A DNA stretch of 64,000 bases from Candidatus Kuenenbacteria bacterium HGW-Kuenenbacteria-1 (GCA_002839745.1 PGYQ01000001.1:16775-80774), one strand, 5' to 3'. Positions 28,000 to 59,901 are shown, counted from the first letter of the stretch. Program-made: numbers and translations. The notes: generated by a model from the letters alone, not told the origin.

Positions 28000-28650
28000 T
28001 ATATTGTTATTTTATTACATTTTAATTTAAAAATCTAATTAAAAGACTGACTGTGGGCGATTACATGGAATCGGCCTACAGGATTTTCCATTGAATTTTT
28101 TTACCATTTTGTAGGGGCGGGTTTTATGCCCGCCCTTTTTTTAGAGACCCTACGTAAAATTGTGTCTGATATAATAAAAATTATTATTGACGTATCCGTA
28201 GGGGCGTACCCTTGCGTACGCCCAGAAATAAAAAACAAATAATTTAATTTAATGGGAAATTTTGTAGGGGCGTATTACAATACGCCCCTACAAAATGCAA
28301 ATTGTTATGCAATACAATTCCGAAATTTTTTTCCTTTTCTTCCTTGCTTCTTTTCTTTTGCTTCTTCTTTTTAGCTAATTTTAGCTACTAGTCCATAGAC
28401 TGTTCTATGGACTAAGAAATTTTATTCCATTCTAAATTCTATTTTTTATTTTTTGTAGAACATCCTAATTGTAGAGTAGTGGGGTAGATGAGAGCCTCTG
28501 CTCTCATCTTTTCAGAAATTAAGAAACCCTCTAAATCTCCCTTGTCAGGGAGACTTTTTAGTAAATATAAAATGCTAAATTGTGTTAAATTATGTTGACA
28601 ATTATGTTAAATTGTGTTTGTAGTTTTTATTATTTTAGATTAAAATATAA
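28000..28650. repeat. Gene-free, GC-enriched region packed with palindromic repeat elements
   Basis: Hairpins gggcgggttttatgcccgccc, gggcgtacccttgcgtacgccc, ttttgtaggggcgtattacaatacgcccctacaaaa (15-bp stem), tagtccatagactgttctatggacta, gatgagagcctctgctctcatc, tctcccttgtcagggaga; copy A of the dispersed motif at 28144-28182. Confidence 0.65.
28144..28182 (+). repeat. Dispersed motif copy A (gagaccctacgtaaaattgtgtctgatataataaaaatt)
   Basis: Matches copies at 37511, 56161, 59804 and inverted copy at 37620. Confidence 0.7.
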
Positions 28651-28715: not shown

Positions 28716-29285
28716 ATGAAAAGGGTAATAATGACAATAGTCGTAATAATACTATCTGCTCAGGCAAGAGCAGACAGTATGTTATTTACGACTGACTGGG
28801 TAAGTGGAACCCAGTCGGTTTCCGGTGGCGGTATAGAGTTTAATTGTACCGTCACTGTCGACCCCAGCTCCACGGAAGGATGCTGGGGTGTGGATTTTTA
28901 TGGGAGTTTTGAAGGGCTAACAAACCTTCAATTTCCCATATCAGCGTTTTGCGTTCAGAGCAAAACGCTTTTCGGGATTGGGAATTTATGGGTCCCACCC
29001 GGAAATTCTTTCACATTTTCGTACGAGATGCCTAACTCGTATGAGGCCGTAAGAGGGACCGCCACCTCTTACGCATATGTTCCTGTTCCTATAGGCTTTA
29101 CTCCTGGGTTAATAGACCTAGGGGTTGAGGACTCAGATTCTATTTGGGTCCCTCGATTGCGACCTGTTGGGCAACCACCTAGTGGCAATGCTGTTCCCGA
29201 GCCATGTACAATGGCTCTACTGGGAATAGGCACGGTTGGCTTAGTGGGTCTTAGACAAAAAGGGGGCAGGATAGGCGCTAAATAA
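28716..29285 (+). CDS. Secreted PEP-CTERM-anchored protein, G+C-rich (foreign composition)
   Basis: Strong SD aaggaggtg 8 nt upstream; signal peptide MKRVIMTIVVIILSAQARA; C-terminal VPEP-CTMALLGIGTVGLVGL-RQKGGR is a PEP-CTERM sorting signal; visibly higher G+C than flanks. Confidence 0.6.
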   Translation: MKRVIMTIVVIILSAQARADSMLFTTDWVSGTQSVSGGGIEFNCTVTVDPSSTEGCWGVDFYGSFEGLTNLQFPISAFCVQSKTLFGIGNLWVPPGNSFTFSYEMPNSYEAVRGTATSYAYVPVPIGFTPGLIDLGVEDSDSIWVPRLRPVGQPPSGNAVPEPCTMALLGIGTVGLVGLRQKGGRIGAK

Positions 29286-36649: not shown

Positions 36650-37539
36650 TTATTTTAATAATTTATTTTTAAAGTTAAATCCAAAATTTTTAGGACTAAA
36701 TAGTTTTAATCCTTTAGGTGTTCGCCATAATTTGCAACATTTTTTTCCAAAAACTTTCACCTTTTTATCTAAGGAAATATCACTATTATATAAAGGATAA
36801 TTATTAATATCTGTACATATAATTAAATCGGGGCAAGTCAGGATTATTTTTTTATTAATCCAAAATAGGAGATATTCATTTTTAATAAACAATCGTCCTT
36901 CTGAGTTTATATTTTTAATCCTAATATCTTTAGTAATAAACCCATTCTTTTCTTTTTCTTTTATAGAAGAAACTGTTCCTTCATATAATAATTTTAATTC
37001 TTCATTTTTAAAAGATCATTAAAATTATTAGAATTAATAATTTTGCCAATTTTCAAAGCTTCTGACACAGTGCCGGTTTCTATTTTCTTTTCCAAAGTTT
37101 TTTTAGAAAAAGGGTAACCCACAACAAAAGTTTTTTCTTTAGAAAAAGTTCGCAAAATTCTTTCCTCTTCTTTAAAAGAAATTGATTTAGTAAAAATTGC
37201 TATATTGCCTTCTGTTCCAACTAAAACAAGAGGTGTTCTATTTAGTTTAAAGAGACTAATTGTTTCCAAAAAAATTTCCGGAGCAGACTTTCCACCTACA
37301 AAATCTGCATCAACAATTGGTAATTTTAATTCTGAAGCTATAAAAAAAGCAGATGCTAACGAAGTTGGACCAATTTCTACTGGGATTATTCCTTTTACCT
37401 TCTTTCCTAAATAATTTAATAATTCTTTAACTCCTTTTTTAATATAAGTTACAGGATCAATGTCTTTTATGGATGATCCTACCCCAAAGGCCGTGATAAA
37501 TAAATAAAGAGAGACCCTACATAAAATTGTGTCTGGCAT
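36650..37539 (-). pseudogene. Hypothetical gene split by a -1/+2 frameshift at ~36995 (ORFs 36994..37539 and 36650..36892 are contiguous in shifted frames)
   Basis: Reading frame of ORF 36650..36892 stays open upstream to overlap the last codons of ORF 36994..37539 at an A/T homopolymer; N-terminal codons come from dispersed motif copy B. Confidence 0.45.
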
Positions 37540-37646
37540 AGTAAAAATGTATAATTAATTTTGTCATAATAGTTAAAGTGTTTTAATAATAAATTTAATA
37601 TTTATTCTAGATAAAAAAAGCTAGACACACTTTTATGAACGGTCCC
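37511..37646. mobile_element. MITE-like unit: dispersed motif copy B (37511-37549, direct) and diverged inverted copy B' (37620-37646) about 100 bp apart
   Basis: gagaccctacataaaattgtgtctggcatagtaaaaatg vs reverse-complement gggaccgttcataaaagtgtgtctagc. Confidence 0.45.
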
Positions 37647-37779
37647 TTTTTTTTTTCGCCATTGGACAATCCCAATCCGTTGGCATCTCATCCACCTCCG
37701 AGACCTTTTGCCATGGGGGTAAAAGATCGGGAACCCTCATTGCGATCCATGTTTTTAGATCGTCTTTTTTTATTTTCAT
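37602..37779 (-). CDS. Small (~58 aa) G+C-rich ORF with strong SD, homologous at its 3' end to the IS-remnant ORF at 56150 (coordinates approximate)
   Basis: aaggagg-N7-ATG; ...DCPMAKKKGTVHKSVSS parallels ...CSPRLQKKKETLHKIISG at 56150; likely a decayed transposase-associated fragment rather than a functional gene. Confidence 0.3.
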
Positions 37780-56008: not shown

Positions 56009-56093
56009 GCCCAGGTGGTGAAATTGGTATACACGCTAGGTTAAGGACCTAGTACCGTGAGGTGTGGAGGTTCAAGTCCTCTCCTGGGCACCA
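56009..56093 (+). tRNA. tRNA-Leu (class II, long variable arm); anticodon loop reads TTAAGGA so anticodon AAG in my parse
   Basis: GCCCAGG/CCTGGGC acceptor, GGTGGTGAAATTGGTATACAC D-arm typical of tRNA-Leu, CTAGG-TTAAGGA-CCTAG anticodon arm, long variable arm, TTCAAGT T-loop, encoded CCA. Confidence 0.75.
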
Positions 56094-56149
56094 AATTGGA
56101 TTTCGTGATTTTTTGCGGGTGGAAGCAGAGGTTTGCTCGCCCCGCCTGC

Positions 56150-56334
56150 AGAAAAAAAAGGAGACCCTACATAAAATTATTTCTGGTATTCGGATTTCTT
56201 CCGAGCATGCTATCGCTGGCATTAAAAGATTGCGAATTGTAACTGACAAATTTAGGAATAAAACAAATAAATTTAATGATAAGGTTATGTTTTTAGCTTG
56301 TGGACTCTGGAATTATCAATTAAAATATTGCTAA
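56150..56334 (+). pseudogene. C-terminal ~60-aa remnant of an IS4/IS5-superfamily DDE transposase
   Basis: ...KETLHKIISGIRISSEHAIAGIKRLRIVTDKFRNKTNKFNDKVMFLACGLWNY: E-x7-K/R spacing and IAxIKRxRIxxDxFRNxxxxFxxxxxLAcxLxN pattern typical of DDE_Tnp_1 C-termini; N-terminal ~250 aa absent; embeds dispersed motif copy C (56161-56190). Confidence 0.5.
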
Positions 56335-56389
56335 TTCCAAAATTTATAAGGATAGTCTATCTTATTGAGTTATTCCGCAACTAGTTTAA

Positions 56390-57478
56390 TTATCTTTTTT
56401 TAATATCACCAGTTAAATTAAAGGTCTTATTTTTAGCCATCGAGAGAAACCGGCTTGCTGTTTTGCCTATTTCATCGCTGATATATTTTGCATTGCTATA
56501 TTGCGAGGGGTAGCCGACTAATTCCATAAAGCCGACACCGCTTACTTTTTTATTTTCAAACAAACCTTCCACGCGAAGCGGTCCCTCCCAATAGTTAATC
56601 GAACCAAATAGCATTTCCTGATTTTCAATTTTTGCCGTTAGGTTTAAATCAATATTTTTTGCCGGCATTTTGATTTTCCATGCCAATGGATAAACCGCCT
56701 TGCTCTTTGGACTTGTCCATCGTTCGTCCAAAGGAGTAATCTCGACTTCCTGATAATGTTCTTGGTGGTTATCCGCATAAGAAATATCCGCAAAGTAAGT
56801 TTTCACCTTGCCGTCATCATATAATCCGCAAACCATTTCTGTTTTATTGTCCAATTGCACCGAAAACCAATCCCATTTATCCTTGGAGTAACTCGCGTCC
56901 GCCCATTGATGATCCATCCACGATTTGCCGGTAACATCTATCCATTTGCCCTTAATTTTTATTCTGCCCTCTGTCTTTAAGTTAGTTAATGAATAGTAAT
57001 AGGTAGTTTTGGAATGGAGATCAAGGTATCCTTTTCCGCCCTCAAGCAGTGGCTTTTTAGTTGAAGTCAAAATTAAATCAATATCCTCGTTTTTTATGTG
57101 ATATGTTGATTCGCCGGTTTTTTCAATAACGCAGTTGGTATAACCGTTTTTGATTTCTGGATTAAGATAATTTATATAAAGCAGGGGCTTGGAAAAACTA
57201 TCGTCAGAAATGACAGAAAATGGGGCTATTCTATGGTGAAAACTTTTATGCTTTAAATCCGAAACAAGGGAATGAGAAAAATAAGATGTTTTAAGCGGTA
57301 TCTTGCTTAAAAATGGAATTTTTACTTTTTTAACATCCACTTTAAAAAAGCAATCCATAAAAGAATATCCGTTGCCGTCCTTGTCTTTTAAGTGACCGTT
57401 AAAATACCACCACTCAATTATGTAATTATGTCCTGATTCGTCTGCTGGGAATTTTATTGGTTTATATTCTTTATGCAT
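56390..57478 (-). CDS. AttH/CrtC-like lipocalin-fold predicted hydrolase (COG5621-like), G+C-rich
   Basis: NYIIEWWYFNGHL and GKSWMDHQWA motifs characteristic of the CrtC/AttH family. Confidence 0.55.
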   Translation of the reverse strand: MHKEYKPIKFPADESGHNYIIEWWYFNGHLKDKDGNGYSFMDCFFKVDVKKVKIPFLSKIPLKTSYFSHSLVSDLKHKSFHHRIAPFSVISDDSFSKPLLYINYLNPEIKNGYTNCVIEKTGESTYHIKNEDIDLILTSTKKPLLEGGKGYLDLHSKTTYYYSLTNLKTEGRIKIKGKWIDVTGKSWMDHQWADASYSKDKWDWFSVQLDNKTEMVCGLYDDGKVKTYFADISYADNHQEHYQEVEITPLDERWTSPKSKAVYPLAWKIKMPAKNIDLNLTAKIENQEMLFGSINYWEGPLRVEGLFENKKVSGVGFMELVGYPSQYSNAKYISDEIGKTASRFLSMAKNKTFNLTGDIKKR

Positions 57479-57504
57479 AAAACTATTTTTAAATTATAGA
57501 AGCA

Positions 57505-57699
57505 TTATGAGACGCTCCATTTTGTTATCGTAAACAATTTTAGTAATGGAGCGTCTGAAATGCTTTTATTGATTGAAGGGTGGCTTTTTTCTGACCATGC
57601 CCACCAAAGATAACCGCCAATGGCTATAACGGCGATTATTGCTATTCCAATTGTTGTTGGACTTGACCAATCTATGTTTGTTAGAAAATTTGTTGGCAT
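57505..57699 (-). CDS. Small hydrophobic membrane protein (64 aa)
   Basis: One TM helix TIGIAIIAVIAIGGYLWWAW; island cargo. Confidence 0.35.
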   Translation of the reverse strand: MPTNFLTNIDWSSPTTIGIAIIAVIAIGGYLWWAWSEKSHPSINKSISDAPLLKLFTITKWSVS

Positions 57700-57744
57700 A
57701 ATTTTACATCCTTTCTAATTAATCTATAAAACCCTTGAGGCGGG

Positions 57745-57960
57745 CTAATCCTCGACTTTTTTTGATTTTTTATATTCCTTTTCCCAAATAGGATCAAAAA
57801 CCTTAGCTAAATCTTTGTCATAATTTATCATTTTTTTGTTATATTCCTTGTCTTGCAAGGCCTGCTTTGCCGACTCATCAATAGGTTCAGGTTTATCTTC
57901 GTCAATAAATTCTCTCATTTTTTTATAATTTTTACTTTGAACTTGTTTTTTCAGTTTCAA
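57745..57960 (-). CDS. Hypothetical small charged protein (71 aa)
   Basis: ORF only; overlaps upstream 70-aa ORF by 29 nt. Confidence 0.3.
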   Translation of the reverse strand: MKLKKQVQSKNYKKMREFIDEDKPEPIDESAKQALQDKEYNKKMINYDKDLAKVFDPIWEKEYKKSKKVED

Positions 57961-58144
57961 AATTCTTTAAGAATAATTTGGTAGCTTCGATTTCTGCCTG
58001 ATTTCCGACCTTTATTATTTTTTCTATAATTTCCCACTGCTCATCTCGGTATTTTTTACCTTTGATTTTGCCGTGAAAATTATCCAACACCAACATTTCA
58101 AACTCGTTGATGTGTTTTACTAATTTTGAATTTGTTTCTATCAT
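57932..58144 (-). CDS. Hypothetical small protein (70 aa)
   Basis: ORF only; possible two-gene module with 57745..57960. Confidence 0.3.
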   Translation of the reverse strand: MIETNSKLVKHINEFEMLVLDNFHGKIKGKKYRDEQWEIIEKIIKVGNQAEIEATKLFLKNFETEKTSSK

Positions 58145-58316
58145 AAGTTTATTTATTTAATTTTTTAGTCAAAGTGTCCAAACTTATAATTAAATATATT
58201 TGAATATATCGGCCCAAATAAAATAAGATGCACTTCAACAGCAAGATATTTTGTGGCGATATTAAAACGTCCATCCTTATCTAGCCTTCTGACAGATACG
58301 GGTATTTGAATACTTT

Positions 58317-58865
58317 TCAAAAAATCGAATTTCTCAATTCTCTGCCTATCCTTAAAACGTAATCGTGGTCTTCGGCTAATTTAATTTTTTCATCAAAGCC
58401 ACCTATTAATTGATGGACTTCTTTCTTGGCAAAGATACAAAAACCTGGCGCATGAGAAAACCTTTTTTTAGTTGCCTGAAAATATAAATTAACTGCGCCA
58501 TGCAAAAACTTATCTATTTTTCTGTCGCTCAAGGGATTAATCAAACAAGAAGCGGAAGAAAGAGTTGAACCGTTAATTTCTTTAACAGCCTTCTCTAAAA
58601 AATCAGGCGGTAAAATTACATCAGCGTCTAAAAACAATAGCCACTCACCACGAGCAACCTTAGCGCCATTATTACGACCGCAAGCCGGCAATCCGCCCCC
58701 AACCACTTTTGCTCCGCTTTTTAAAGCAATCAAGCGTGTAGTATCAGTTAAATTATTGTCGGCCACAATAATTTCAAAATCTTTAAATACCTGATCTTTA
58801 AGAGATTTTAAAAGATGCGGTAAAAATTTTTCTTCGTTGAAAGTTGGAATAACAATGCTTAACAT
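58317..58865 (-). CDS. Family 2 glycosyltransferase (short, 182 aa)
   Basis: MLSIVIPTFNEEKFLPHLLKSL N-terminus and LFLDADV (DxD) motif. Confidence 0.7.
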   Translation of the reverse strand: MLSIVIPTFNEEKFLPHLLKSLKDQVFKDFEIIVADNNLTDTTRLIALKSGAKVVGGGLPACGRNNGAKVARGEWLLFLDADVILPPDFLEKAVKEINGSTLSSASCLINPLSDRKIDKFLHGAVNLYFQATKKRFSHAPGFCIFAKKEVHQLIGGFDEKIKLAEDHDYVLRIGRELRNSIF

Positions 58866-58876
58866 AAATTTATGAT

Positions 58877-59464
58877 TTAAAATAAAATCGTAACAATTTG
58901 ATTAGATACTTTTTCAGAGTCAATTTTTTTATTTAAAAAAGAATACTCCAAAAGTAATCCGTCCATCATACCAGTAAGCAAAGATGTTAATAATCGACTA
59001 TCAACTTTTTTATTTAATTTTTTGCTTGAAAAAACTTCCTCTATCACTGGCTGAATTACATTAGCAACCTGTTCTCTTAATTTTTCGGTTCGCTTTGTTA
59101 TTTTAGAGTCAGCTGGCGAAAGTTTTACAACTAAAGCCTTGATAAGATTTTTTTCCTTAAAACCAAAATCTAAATAATTTTTAATTATTTTGTGCAATTT
59201 TTTATCAACCGCAGTTTCGCTTAATGCTTGAGTAAGGGTTAGATTTAAATCATTAAAAACATTATCAATCACTTTTCCATAGATTTCTGCTTTGCCGGTG
59301 AAATGATAATAAAGCGCAGCTTTGGTAATATTTAATTTTTTTGCAATATCATTCATTGAAACACCCAAATAGCTATATTCAGAAAAAAACTTACGGGCTG
59401 TATTAATGATGTGATTCTTGGTGTCTTGAATAACACCCTCAGATTTTTTTGCAATTATTTCCAT
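58877..59464 (-). CDS. TetR/AcrR-family transcriptional regulator
   Basis: N-terminal HTH ARKFFSEYSYLGVSMNDIAKKLNITKAALYYHF. Confidence 0.8.
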   Translation of the reverse strand: MEIIAKKSEGVIQDTKNHIINTARKFFSEYSYLGVSMNDIAKKLNITKAALYYHFTGKAEIYGKVIDNVFNDLNLTLTQALSETAVDKKLHKIIKNYLDFGFKEKNLIKALVVKLSPADSKITKRTEKLREQVANVIQPVIEEVFSSKKLNKKVDSRLLTSLLTGMMDGLLLEYSFLNKKIDSEKVSNQIVTILF

Positions 59465-59486
59465 ATTTTTTATAATTTTATTATTG

Positions 59487-59510
59487 TATACTTACCACTC
59501 GGTAAGTATA
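59487..59510. promoter_or_regulatory. Perfect palindrome TATACTTACC-ACTC-GGTAAGTATA immediately upstream of tetR start (candidate TetR operator)
   Basis: 10-bp arms, 4-bp spacer, 23 bp from the tetR ATG on the minus strand. Confidence 0.55.
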
Positions 59511-59803
59511 TCAGAAAGGATAAATATCTGTCAAGCAAAAATTTACAAAGACGATAATATTTGTTAAACTTATAATTAAGAAATAGTTTTAGGCGGCGCG
59601 CCAGCTTTGCTGGCACGAAAAATTGCGGCGGCGAAAAAAGAAGCGGCGAAAGCGAGGGCGGGCAAAAATTCCTTCCTCCCAACCCTCTTCCTTTTTGCCC
59701 GCCCGAGCGTTCGGTTTCGGTTCTGCTACGCGAAACGCGGCAATCAGTCAGTTTCGTTCAAAAAAAAGGTTCGCGCATTTTCAAACAATGGGCACCAAAT
59801 TGG

Positions 59804-59825
59804 AGACCCTACAAAAAAAATTATA
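59804..59825 (+). repeat. Dispersed motif copy D (gagaccctacaaaaaaaatta) fused to the tRNA-3'-end direct repeat
   Basis: Same 11-nt core gagaccctaca as copies A/B/C. Confidence 0.6.
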
Positions 59826-59901
59826 CACATTCTTGATAAATTTTAAAAATTTGATATTATATAAAAAATAAGTAATTTATTTATTTTTATAATTAATTTT
59901 T

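Follow-up and report, generated by a model that had tools for sequence, protein, structure and literature searches.

How a block of ca. 3.7 kb with an unusual composition came to lie between a tRNA-Leu gene and recA is the question raised by the window analysed here (64 kb of Candidatus Kuenenbacteria bacterium HGW-Kuenenbacteria-1, with a RecA 100% identical to that of the record; genome G+C content, GC, ca. 27%). An earlier note on this DNA had proposed site-specific integration into the tRNA gene, followed by decay of the element. According to the present analysis the segment 56101-59788 is very probably an insertion of foreign DNA at the tRNA-Leu 3' end; mediation by a recombinase is given slightly less than an even chance; the complete statement (a horizontally acquired, TetR-controlled lipid operon, integrated 3' of tRNA-Leu by a recombinase and later decayed) is put at about even. 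Foreign origin, position beside the tRNA gene and decay (seen here in the loss of a patatin gene and in the remnants of a radical S-adenosylmethionine (SAM) gene and an insertion sequence, IS) were retained from the earlier proposal; a role of an integrase, no remnant of which was found, is conjectural. The landmarks are as follows.

56009-56093, plus strand: tRNA-Leu, anticodon AAG, CCA encoded (ARAGORN; Rfam tRNA 55 bits, E = 3e-10), the landmark of the insertion.
56085-56100, plus strand: left copy of the 16-bp direct repeat TGGGCACCAAATTGGA (exact match).
59789-59804, plus strand: right copy of the 16-bp direct repeat TGGGCACCAAATTGGA (exact match).

The repeat was found exactly twice per 64 kb, both times on the plus strand, even when up to two mismatches were allowed (0.02 matches expected from shuffled sequences); the earlier note had held that its occurrence at many unrelated positions would speak against integration, and no copies other than these two are present in the window. 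It consists of the last 9 nt of tRNA-Leu (TGGGC, discriminator A, CCA) and 7 nt downstream. Its description as the tRNA 3' end therefore stands as regards the two exact copies and has to be narrowed as regards its extent, merely 9 nt being within the tRNA (ARAGORN, Rfam). The island starts 7 nt past tRNA-Leu and is flanked by direct repeats that include the tRNA 3' end. The shared core of 14-16 bp, designated X below, is TGGGCACCAAATTG, in its full form TGGGCACCAAATTG[GA]. The window sequence coincided base for base with two other retrieved contigs over the overlaps, and one of these spans the whole island; the island is therefore no assembly accident, though those assemblies may share reads. 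A tRNA with anticodon GAG occupies the position of tRNA-Leu(AAG) in a relative (L110, 5394-5480), and the anticodon stems of the two differ by compensatory changes. A34 is unusual in bacterial tRNA-Leu, being normally confined to tRNA-Arg(ACG).

The interval 56101-59788 (3,688 bp) has a GC of 34.0%, against 26.8% for all other DNA of the window; among the 3.7-kb windows (mean 27.3%, standard deviation (sd) 2.5) none equals it, and the interval is also the top tetranucleotide outlier of the window (z = 3.0), so that the visibly raised GC reported earlier for these ca. 3.7 kb appears as a peak of both the sliding GC and the tetranucleotide signature. At third codon positions the attH-like gene reached a GC (GC3) of 37% and the family-2 glycosyltransferase (GT2) gene one of 29%, vs 15.9 +/- 5.5% in 42 backbone open reading frames (ORFs); tetR was just 1.2 sd above the backbone. 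The island genes are on the minus strand within a plus-strand region, and the GC skew is inverted there. A composition unlike that of the host, as expected of a genomic island, was thus found. The only other GC3 outlier of the window, the ORF 28716-29285 (48% GC, GC3 42%), encodes a secreted protein with a PEP-CTERM tail and is probably another foreign gene.

The island carries the following genes, in order of coordinates.

56390-57478, minus strand: intact AttH/CrtC-like protein with two lipocalin domains, 362 aa (Pfam CrtC, Lipocalin_9).
57505-57699, minus strand: small membrane protein, 64-aa ORF, the first ca. 45 aa conserved; one hydrophobic helix in the translation.
57745-57960, minus strand: relic of a radical SAM/SPASM gene, the last ca. 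61 codons within a 71-aa ORF (tblastn).
57932-58144, minus strand: 70-aa ORF in the place of the deleted radical-SAM gene; GC as in the backbone.
58317-58865, minus strand: GT2, 182 aa (Pfam Glycos_transf_2, 9e-24).
58877-59464, minus strand: TetR-family repressor, 195 aa (Pfam TetR_N 4e-13; TetR_C_4, YsiA-like, 1e-4).

Island ORFs were searched against Pfam and NCBIfam profiles, and proteins of homologous loci were used in tblastn. All gene calls of the earlier note (transposase remnant, AttH/CrtC-like protein, GT2, TetR) agreed with Pfam, and the profile searches proposed there gave the predicted matches (362 aa with PF07143/PF17186; 182 aa with the GT2 model). The 362-aa protein scored over the Pfam gathering score with both domains of the AttH/CrtC family, i.e., CrtC (PF07143; 6e-30, 105.6 bits vs a cut-off of 22.5) and Lipocalin_9 (PF17186; 7e-29, 101 bits vs a cut-off of 26.2); it also matched PDB entry 2ICH, 'putative AttH' (1e-24). 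Like the members of this family (AttH of the Agrobacterium att locus; the carotenoid 1,2-hydratase CrtC) it possesses both lipocalin-like domains; unlike them, it has no carotenoid genes nearby and no evident signal peptide. Its identity to plasmid-borne AttH/CrtC proteins is only ca. 27%, and plasmids were rejected as carriers of the cargo on that ground; phages were likewise rejected, no viral relative having appeared in the viral search.

Three small ORFs, one of them membrane-bound, had been listed before. The membrane ORF was confirmed (62% identity to a 45-aa ORF located between tetR and attH in L094 and L096); another had been overlooked as a relic, since residues 432-492 of the 493-aa radical-SAM protein of locus L100 matched 57930-57751 (tblastn; 52% identity, E = 1e-13). 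The radical SAM/SPASM identity rests on the Pfam assignment of the L100 protein. The 70-aa ORF gave no Pfam or NCBIfam match and has no counterpart in L094-L101. The GT2 is 81% identical to a 181-aa GT2 beside tetR in L100; its best NCBIfam match, under the cut-off of that model, was TIGR04283 (6e-24), an arsenosugar-biosynthesis glycosyltransferase related to MftF. TetR is 71-73% identical to the tetR products of L094, L097 and L101. No trace of patatin was detected in the island by tblastn.

The origin of the cargo was approached through its homologues. At the best attH matches a recurrent unit was found, composed of tetR (195 aa), attH (365 aa) and a patatin-like phospholipase gene (278 aa), with optional members between tetR and attH: either the 45-aa membrane ORF, or GT2 (181 aa) plus radical SAM/SPASM (493 aa). 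AttH-like homologues number hundreds at 60-88% identity in very diverse lineages (including Paceibacterota, Buchananbacteria, Lloydbacteria, Moranbacteria, Saccharibacteria and a 4-Mb contig from outside the candidate phyla radiation, CPR); those at 84-88% identity are in genomes of 37-42% GC, and the cargo as a whole shares 70-88% protein identity with operons of many Patescibacteria and other bacteria. At the DNA level the island is 76-84% identical to L094, L100 and L101 (attH part 80-84%), and this homology breaks off on one side with the stop codon of attH (56389-56393) and on the other at 59585, 5' of tetR; among the other loci it ends at the patatin stop and ca. 50 nt upstream of tetR. 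Limits at the gene ends therefore mark the unit as an operon without conserved mobile ends. For comparison, the FAD/NAD oxidoreductase of the backbone is 75-79% identical within Kuenenbacteria and <=60% outside, and RecA <=81% identical outside the genus-level group; this divergence of the backbone proteins, set against attH-like proteins that are still 84-88% identical in genomes of 37-42% GC, supports the foreign origin of the island.

The island has tetR, operator, promoter, small membrane ORF and attH-like gene in common with the attH-patatin operons (L094-L103), and its order of tetR, GT2 and radical-SAM gene is that of L097 and L100; unlike these operons it is devoid of patatin, has radical SAM as a 61-codon relic only and contains the extra 70-aa ORF. 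The module has ca. 35% GC whether the host has 27% or 42% (35-37% where the flanks have 37-42%, in L094, L097/L100 and L101; 34% in this 27%-GC genome), so its composition seems to be a property of the cassette and not to follow that of the host. In L097/L100 (5117-7347) the partner of the short GT2 (181-182 aa) is the 493-aa radical SAM/SPASM protein; in L097 the GT2 carries a frameshift (151 aa), and between the radical-SAM gene and attH there is a Y1_Tnp gene of the IS200 type. In L101 (1-171; 177-3962) an ORF of the excisionase type (HTH_17) was seen ca. 7 kb upstream of the operon, along with a 1261-aa protein without a Pfam domain, and the operon is followed by a MacB/FtsX-ABC exporter pair; the L101 operon may thus form part of a mobile element of larger size. 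A literature search on attH-patatin operons and on tRNA islands in Patescibacteria returned nothing relevant.

Control of the cargo by TetR is suggested by one further feature.

59487-59534, minus strand: tetR promoter, -35 TTGACA (59534-59529) and -10 TATACT (59510-59505); 11/12 matches in the promoter scan.

This is the strongest promoter match in the region, and its -10 box is overlapped by the perfect operator palindrome noted earlier, TATACTTACC-ACTC-GGTAAGTATA, whose position (59487-59510) was verified. The -35 hexamer and ACTTACC-GAGT-GGTAAGT are kept 5' of tetR in the window, L094, L100 and L101 (in L100 one arm base differs), with variable surrounding sequence; a site of this type occurs once in the window. 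Judged from sequence, the site is arranged as is usual for TetR repressors that regulate themselves. With its C-terminal domain TetR weakly matched fatty-acyl-binding regulators of the YsiA/FadR type; taken with the patatin partner of the unit, these matches make a lipid-related role the best guess. Of the TetR-controlled cell-surface or lipid-modifying module suggested earlier, TetR control was therefore upheld (promoter and operator kept at four loci), and lipid handling is favoured over cell-surface glycosylation because the unit is elsewhere partnered with a patatin-like phospholipase.

The non-coding ends of the island bear on whether the foreign DNA reaches the two repeat copies.

56101-56160, no strand: left terminal GC-rich non-coding segment, 60 bp (T-run, hairpin GCGGG...CCCGC, A-run).
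59585-59788, no strand: right terminal GC-rich (56%) non-coding segment, ca. 200 bp; hairpin arms 59647-59668 and 59692-59713.

On the left, 27 nt (56132-56158) resemble L100 4313-4337, upstream of tetR (local score 30; null maximum 23); on the right, a 47-nt hairpin, GCGGGCAAAAA-N23-TTTTTGCCCGC, matches L100 4245-4291 (score 43; null maximum 25). Both end segments resembling the L100 flank, the foreign DNA seems to extend to both copies of the repeat. For the right boundary a conserved sequence upstream of recA was sought among relatives, and only ca. 30 nt before the start codon align. The hairpin GCGGGCAAAAA-TTTTTGCCCGC (window 59658-59702; C/T-rich loop of 23-25 nt) lies upstream of tetR in both window and L100 and, judged by its loop, points the other way with respect to tetR in one of the two, which suggests a small palindromic element able to sit in either orientation. 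A structured RNA in the terminal segments was considered and rejected: Rfam (E <= 1) returned just the tRNA, and 59575-59800 folded no better than shuffled sequences (z = -1.1 and -0.2 for the two strands). Protein-coding relics, e.g., an integrase fragment, were sought in the ORFs of 59470-59871; no Pfam match was obtained.

The end proximal to the tRNA is further marked by a mobile element, whose terminal repeat recurs elsewhere in the window.

56160-56389, plus strand: internally deleted IS5-family element, left terminal repeat (56160-56190) fused to the last ca. 55 transposase codons (56173-56334).
59802-59821, plus strand: stump of the IS terminal repeat, GGAGACCCTACAAAAAAAATT, 11-20 bp, abutting the right repeat outside the island (motif search, four-copy alignment).
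37510-37647: element of 138 bp resembling a miniature inverted-repeat transposable element (MITE), with terminal inverted repeats of ca. 31 bp (AGAGACCCTACATAAAATTGTGTCTGGCATA at 37510, inverted at 37617; 24/31 match).

Fragment 56137-56334 matched the C-terminus of DDE_Tnp_4 (positions 99-158/158, E = 5e-5, just under the gathering score), and the transposase remnant matched the NCBIfam IS5-family model NF033581 (positions 229-284/285) and the last 56 residues (252-307) of the 307-aa transposase P0361 (79% identity); the C-terminal remnant described before as IS4/IS5-type is thereby assigned to the IS5 family. Compared with IS5-family elements (DDE_Tnp_4/NF033581) and MITEs, it shares the C-terminal ca. 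55 residues including the R-x-x-x-E region; unlike full elements, it lacks ca. 250 codons as well as a right terminal repeat, which was searched for and not found; neither its full-length parent nor an intact transposase turned up. Instead of the complete DDE transposase and two terminal inverted repeats of the IS5 family there is thus a family-derived remnant, which is no functional member and cannot be autonomous. A Logan contig of the same genome ends at 56361, inside the remnant, as expected of a multicopy sequence.

A second repeat, GGAGACCCTACA, had escaped the earlier note; it occurs at 56160, 60 bp inside the left copy of the direct repeat, and again at 59802, sharing three bases with the end of the right copy; the stump is followed by the recA promoter. 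It is part of a motif of ca. 30 bp, AGAGACCCTACATAAAATTGTGTCTGG, which has 4 plus-strand copies in the window vs 0.15 expected; since the motif forms the MITE with an inverted partner, it is the terminal repeat of a mobile element. A solo copy (28143-28173) lies among GC-rich hairpins (GTAGGGGCG...) ca. 550 bp upstream of the GC-rich ORF 28716-29285, and 3/4 copies come after a GC hairpin or tRNA end. The MITE overlaps the 5' end of an ORF on the minus strand (36994-37539; S-Me-THD_N, PF06032), in which the profile matched only from position 67; this gene of the S-Me-THD type appears N-terminally truncated, its 5' part cut off by the MITE.

As the direct repeat is entangled with the IS terminal repeat, an IS-related explanation that the earlier note had left aside was added, namely that no integrase ever acted and that the cargo was brought in or rearranged by an IS5-family element marking both ends. 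The duplicated unit would then be a junction of ca. 25-35 bp, 'tRNA end + IS terminal repeat', later split at the left by a 57-bp insert with a hairpin and GGA flanks. This accords with GGAGACCCTACA standing directly after the repeat at 59802 and after the 57-bp insert at 56160, with the motif being a genuine mobile-element end (MITE 37510/37617, solo copy 28143), with the absence of an integrase and with the break of the Logan contig inside the remnant, as a multicopy IS would give. It is opposed by the position of the right stump outside the direct repeat, so that the repeat is no target-site duplication of a composite transposon (left IS inside the repeat, right stump outside; no short duplication flanks 56160 and 59821), and by the length of the repeat (14-16 bp), which is unlike IS5-family duplications; these elements make target duplications of 2-4 bp. 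Moreover, the 57-bp segment resembles the foreign L100 flank and not an independent insertion, and intact transposase and right terminal repeat are missing. IS-driven insertion is accordingly regarded as unlikely.

The order of the parts is informative in this respect. Starting at tRNA-X, one meets the 57-bp hairpin of foreign origin, the remnant of the IS, the cargo from attH to tetR, the foreign GC-rich segment, X again, the stump of the IS and finally recA. Recombination of a circle (X, 57-bp segment, IS, cargo) with a chromosome on which tRNA-X was followed by an IS stump and recA would give this order only if the crossover fell within X. Homologous crossover in the IS copies would have left the 57-bp segment on the right, the opposite of what is observed. 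X is too short for RecA-dependent recombination. Crossover geometry, length of X and its coincidence with the classical tRNA attachment (att) target therefore favour site-specific integration followed by loss of the recombinase.

In relatives with RecA 87-92% identical, recA-nusB(-rnc) is mostly kept, and the gene upstream of recA differs in each of four (L084, HD-domain gene; L085, 426-aa gene after ruvX; L091, Y1_Tnp plus a 107-aa ORF; L113, truncated LepA-like gene); this upstream region is, on the sequences compared, a rearrangement hot spot. Several of the recA-upstream contigs carry IS genes (DDE_3, Y1_Tnp, rve_3). The comparison suggested earlier, i.e., tRNA-Leu followed directly by recA, is uninformative because the sequence upstream of recA differs in all four relatives examined. 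In L109-L112 a tRNA-Leu(GAG) has the same place after the FAD/NAD oxidoreductase gene, and a relative keeping Fer4, FAD/NAD and tRNA-Leu continues into unrelated minus-strand genes, with no island. No island gene was found on the relatives' recA and FAD/NAD contigs L084-L093 (recA contigs by tblastn), and none is listed in the gene tables of L104-L115 (tables only), which fits a lineage-specific gain. The best RecA matches among GTDB species representatives were <=78% identical, with no synteny and no empty site. Metagenome scans for the exact empty-site junction and the IS terminal repeat gave no matches; the species itself was unrecovered there, so these scans carry no weight. The junctions predicted were ...CTCTCCTGGGCACCAAATTGGAGACCCTACA... 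for the empty site and ...TTTTCAAACAATGGGCACCAAATTGGATTTCGTGATTTT... for the circular form.

The variability of the site lends itself to another explanation, in which foreign DNA was captured at a synteny breakpoint by illegitimate, microhomology-mediated joining with no mobility system needed, the repeat of 14-16 bp being the microhomology used or a small repair duplication. In its favour, the sequences downstream of tRNA-Leu and upstream of recA differ in every relative examined, and no mobile-element ends can be recognised at the homologous operons of other genomes; yet an exact match of 16 bp to the tRNA 3' end, a classic att target, is improbable by chance, and illegitimate joining normally leaves no duplicated microhomology on both sides of an insert. 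This course of events is considered quite improbable. That nothing was inserted, i.e., that these are vertically inherited Kuenenbacteria genes of unusual composition beside a coincidental repeat, would agree with the lack of a colinear empty site and with the modest GC3 of tetR; it is hardly credible in view of the 0.02 repeat matches expected by chance, the position of the island as the compositional extreme of the window, the 76-84% DNA identity of the cargo to organisms of 37-42% GC (backbone proteins <=60% outside the lineage) and the lack of island genes on the relatives' contigs (L084-L093; L104-L115 by gene tables only).

A number of observations weigh against recombinase-mediated integration at tRNA-Leu and are collected here. 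No integrase or recombinase domain or fragment was found in the ORFs of the island or its terminal regions (Pfam, NCBIfam), in agreement with the earlier statement that no integrase remains; the integrase gene next to the att site that marks a genomic island is thus missing. With just 9 nt inside the tRNA, the repeat falls short of what a tRNA att core typically covers. The IS terminal repeat is 0-60 bp from both copies of the direct repeat in the same orientation, a coincidence that would be explained only if the IS favoured positions immediately behind hairpins. The relatives yielded no empty site, recA upstream and tRNA-Leu downstream being rearranged in all of them, and no circular junction was found. 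At the homologous operons L094, L100 and L101 there are neither flanking tRNA-derived direct repeats nor conserved ends, nor is there an integrase within the 8 kb fetched per side. Finally, all five contigs bearing the island are identical, and at least some may stem from the same sequencing run.

Set beside the tRNA-associated islands of tyrosine recombinases (e.g., P4-like), the island shares the tRNA 3' site, the repeat of the tRNA terminus, foreign composition, accessory cargo and IS debris; unlike them, it has no integrase or excisionase, is only 3.7 kb long, has 9 nt of the repeat in the tRNA, is documented neither as an empty site nor as a circular form, and has its cargo elsewhere not visibly on such elements. 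It is an ordinary decayed tRNA-associated genomic islet.

The sequence of events under site-specific integration may be reconstructed as follows. The incoming DNA would have been joined by a crossover inside the 14-16 bp of TGGGCACCAAATTG[GA] common to it and the tRNA 3' end, the likeliest agent being a site-specific (tyrosine-type) recombinase, since lost, and the cargo would have arrived as a copy of a widely exchanged operon of ca. 35% GC. TetR would bind ACTTACC-N4-GGTAAGT over the -10 box of its own promoter, and a lipid-like ligand would presumably release the operon; the AttH-like enzyme of lipocalin fold, normally working with the patatin phospholipase, would then act on lipids. Both the lipid nature of the ligand and the lipid-handling function are presumptive. 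After arrival an IS5-family element would have landed 60 bp inside the tRNA-proximal end, and patatin, the greater part of both the radical-SAM gene and the IS, and presumably the recombinase gene would then have been lost by deletion. Loss of the integrase through the IS is suggested by the location of the latter, which sits at the usual place of an integrase, patatin having been lost at the same spot.

As to its meaning, the island is a routine case of genes gained beside a tRNA gene and then decaying; it shows that even a genome of the Patescibacteria, very small and AT-rich as it is, takes up foreign operons and later erodes them, IS5-type elements doing part of this. The TetR-controlled attH-like/patatin operon is a more interesting by-product than the island. 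Protein identities of 70-88% across lineages whose RecA is only ca. 78% identical make it a candidate module for lipid handling that is traded horizontally, in organisms believed to rely on the lipids of their hosts, and its conserved operator offers a direct experimental handle. A bolder view, held to be doubtful, is that the unit is a self-contained lipid-handling cassette of ca. 35% GC that circulates among hosts of 27-42% GC, both Patescibacteria and bacteria unrelated to them, without a recombinase of its own, enters tRNA-adjacent, IS-rich hot spots and gives lipid scavenging or remodelling, the copy in the window being a dying one; if true, the cassette would serve cells unable to make their own fatty acids.

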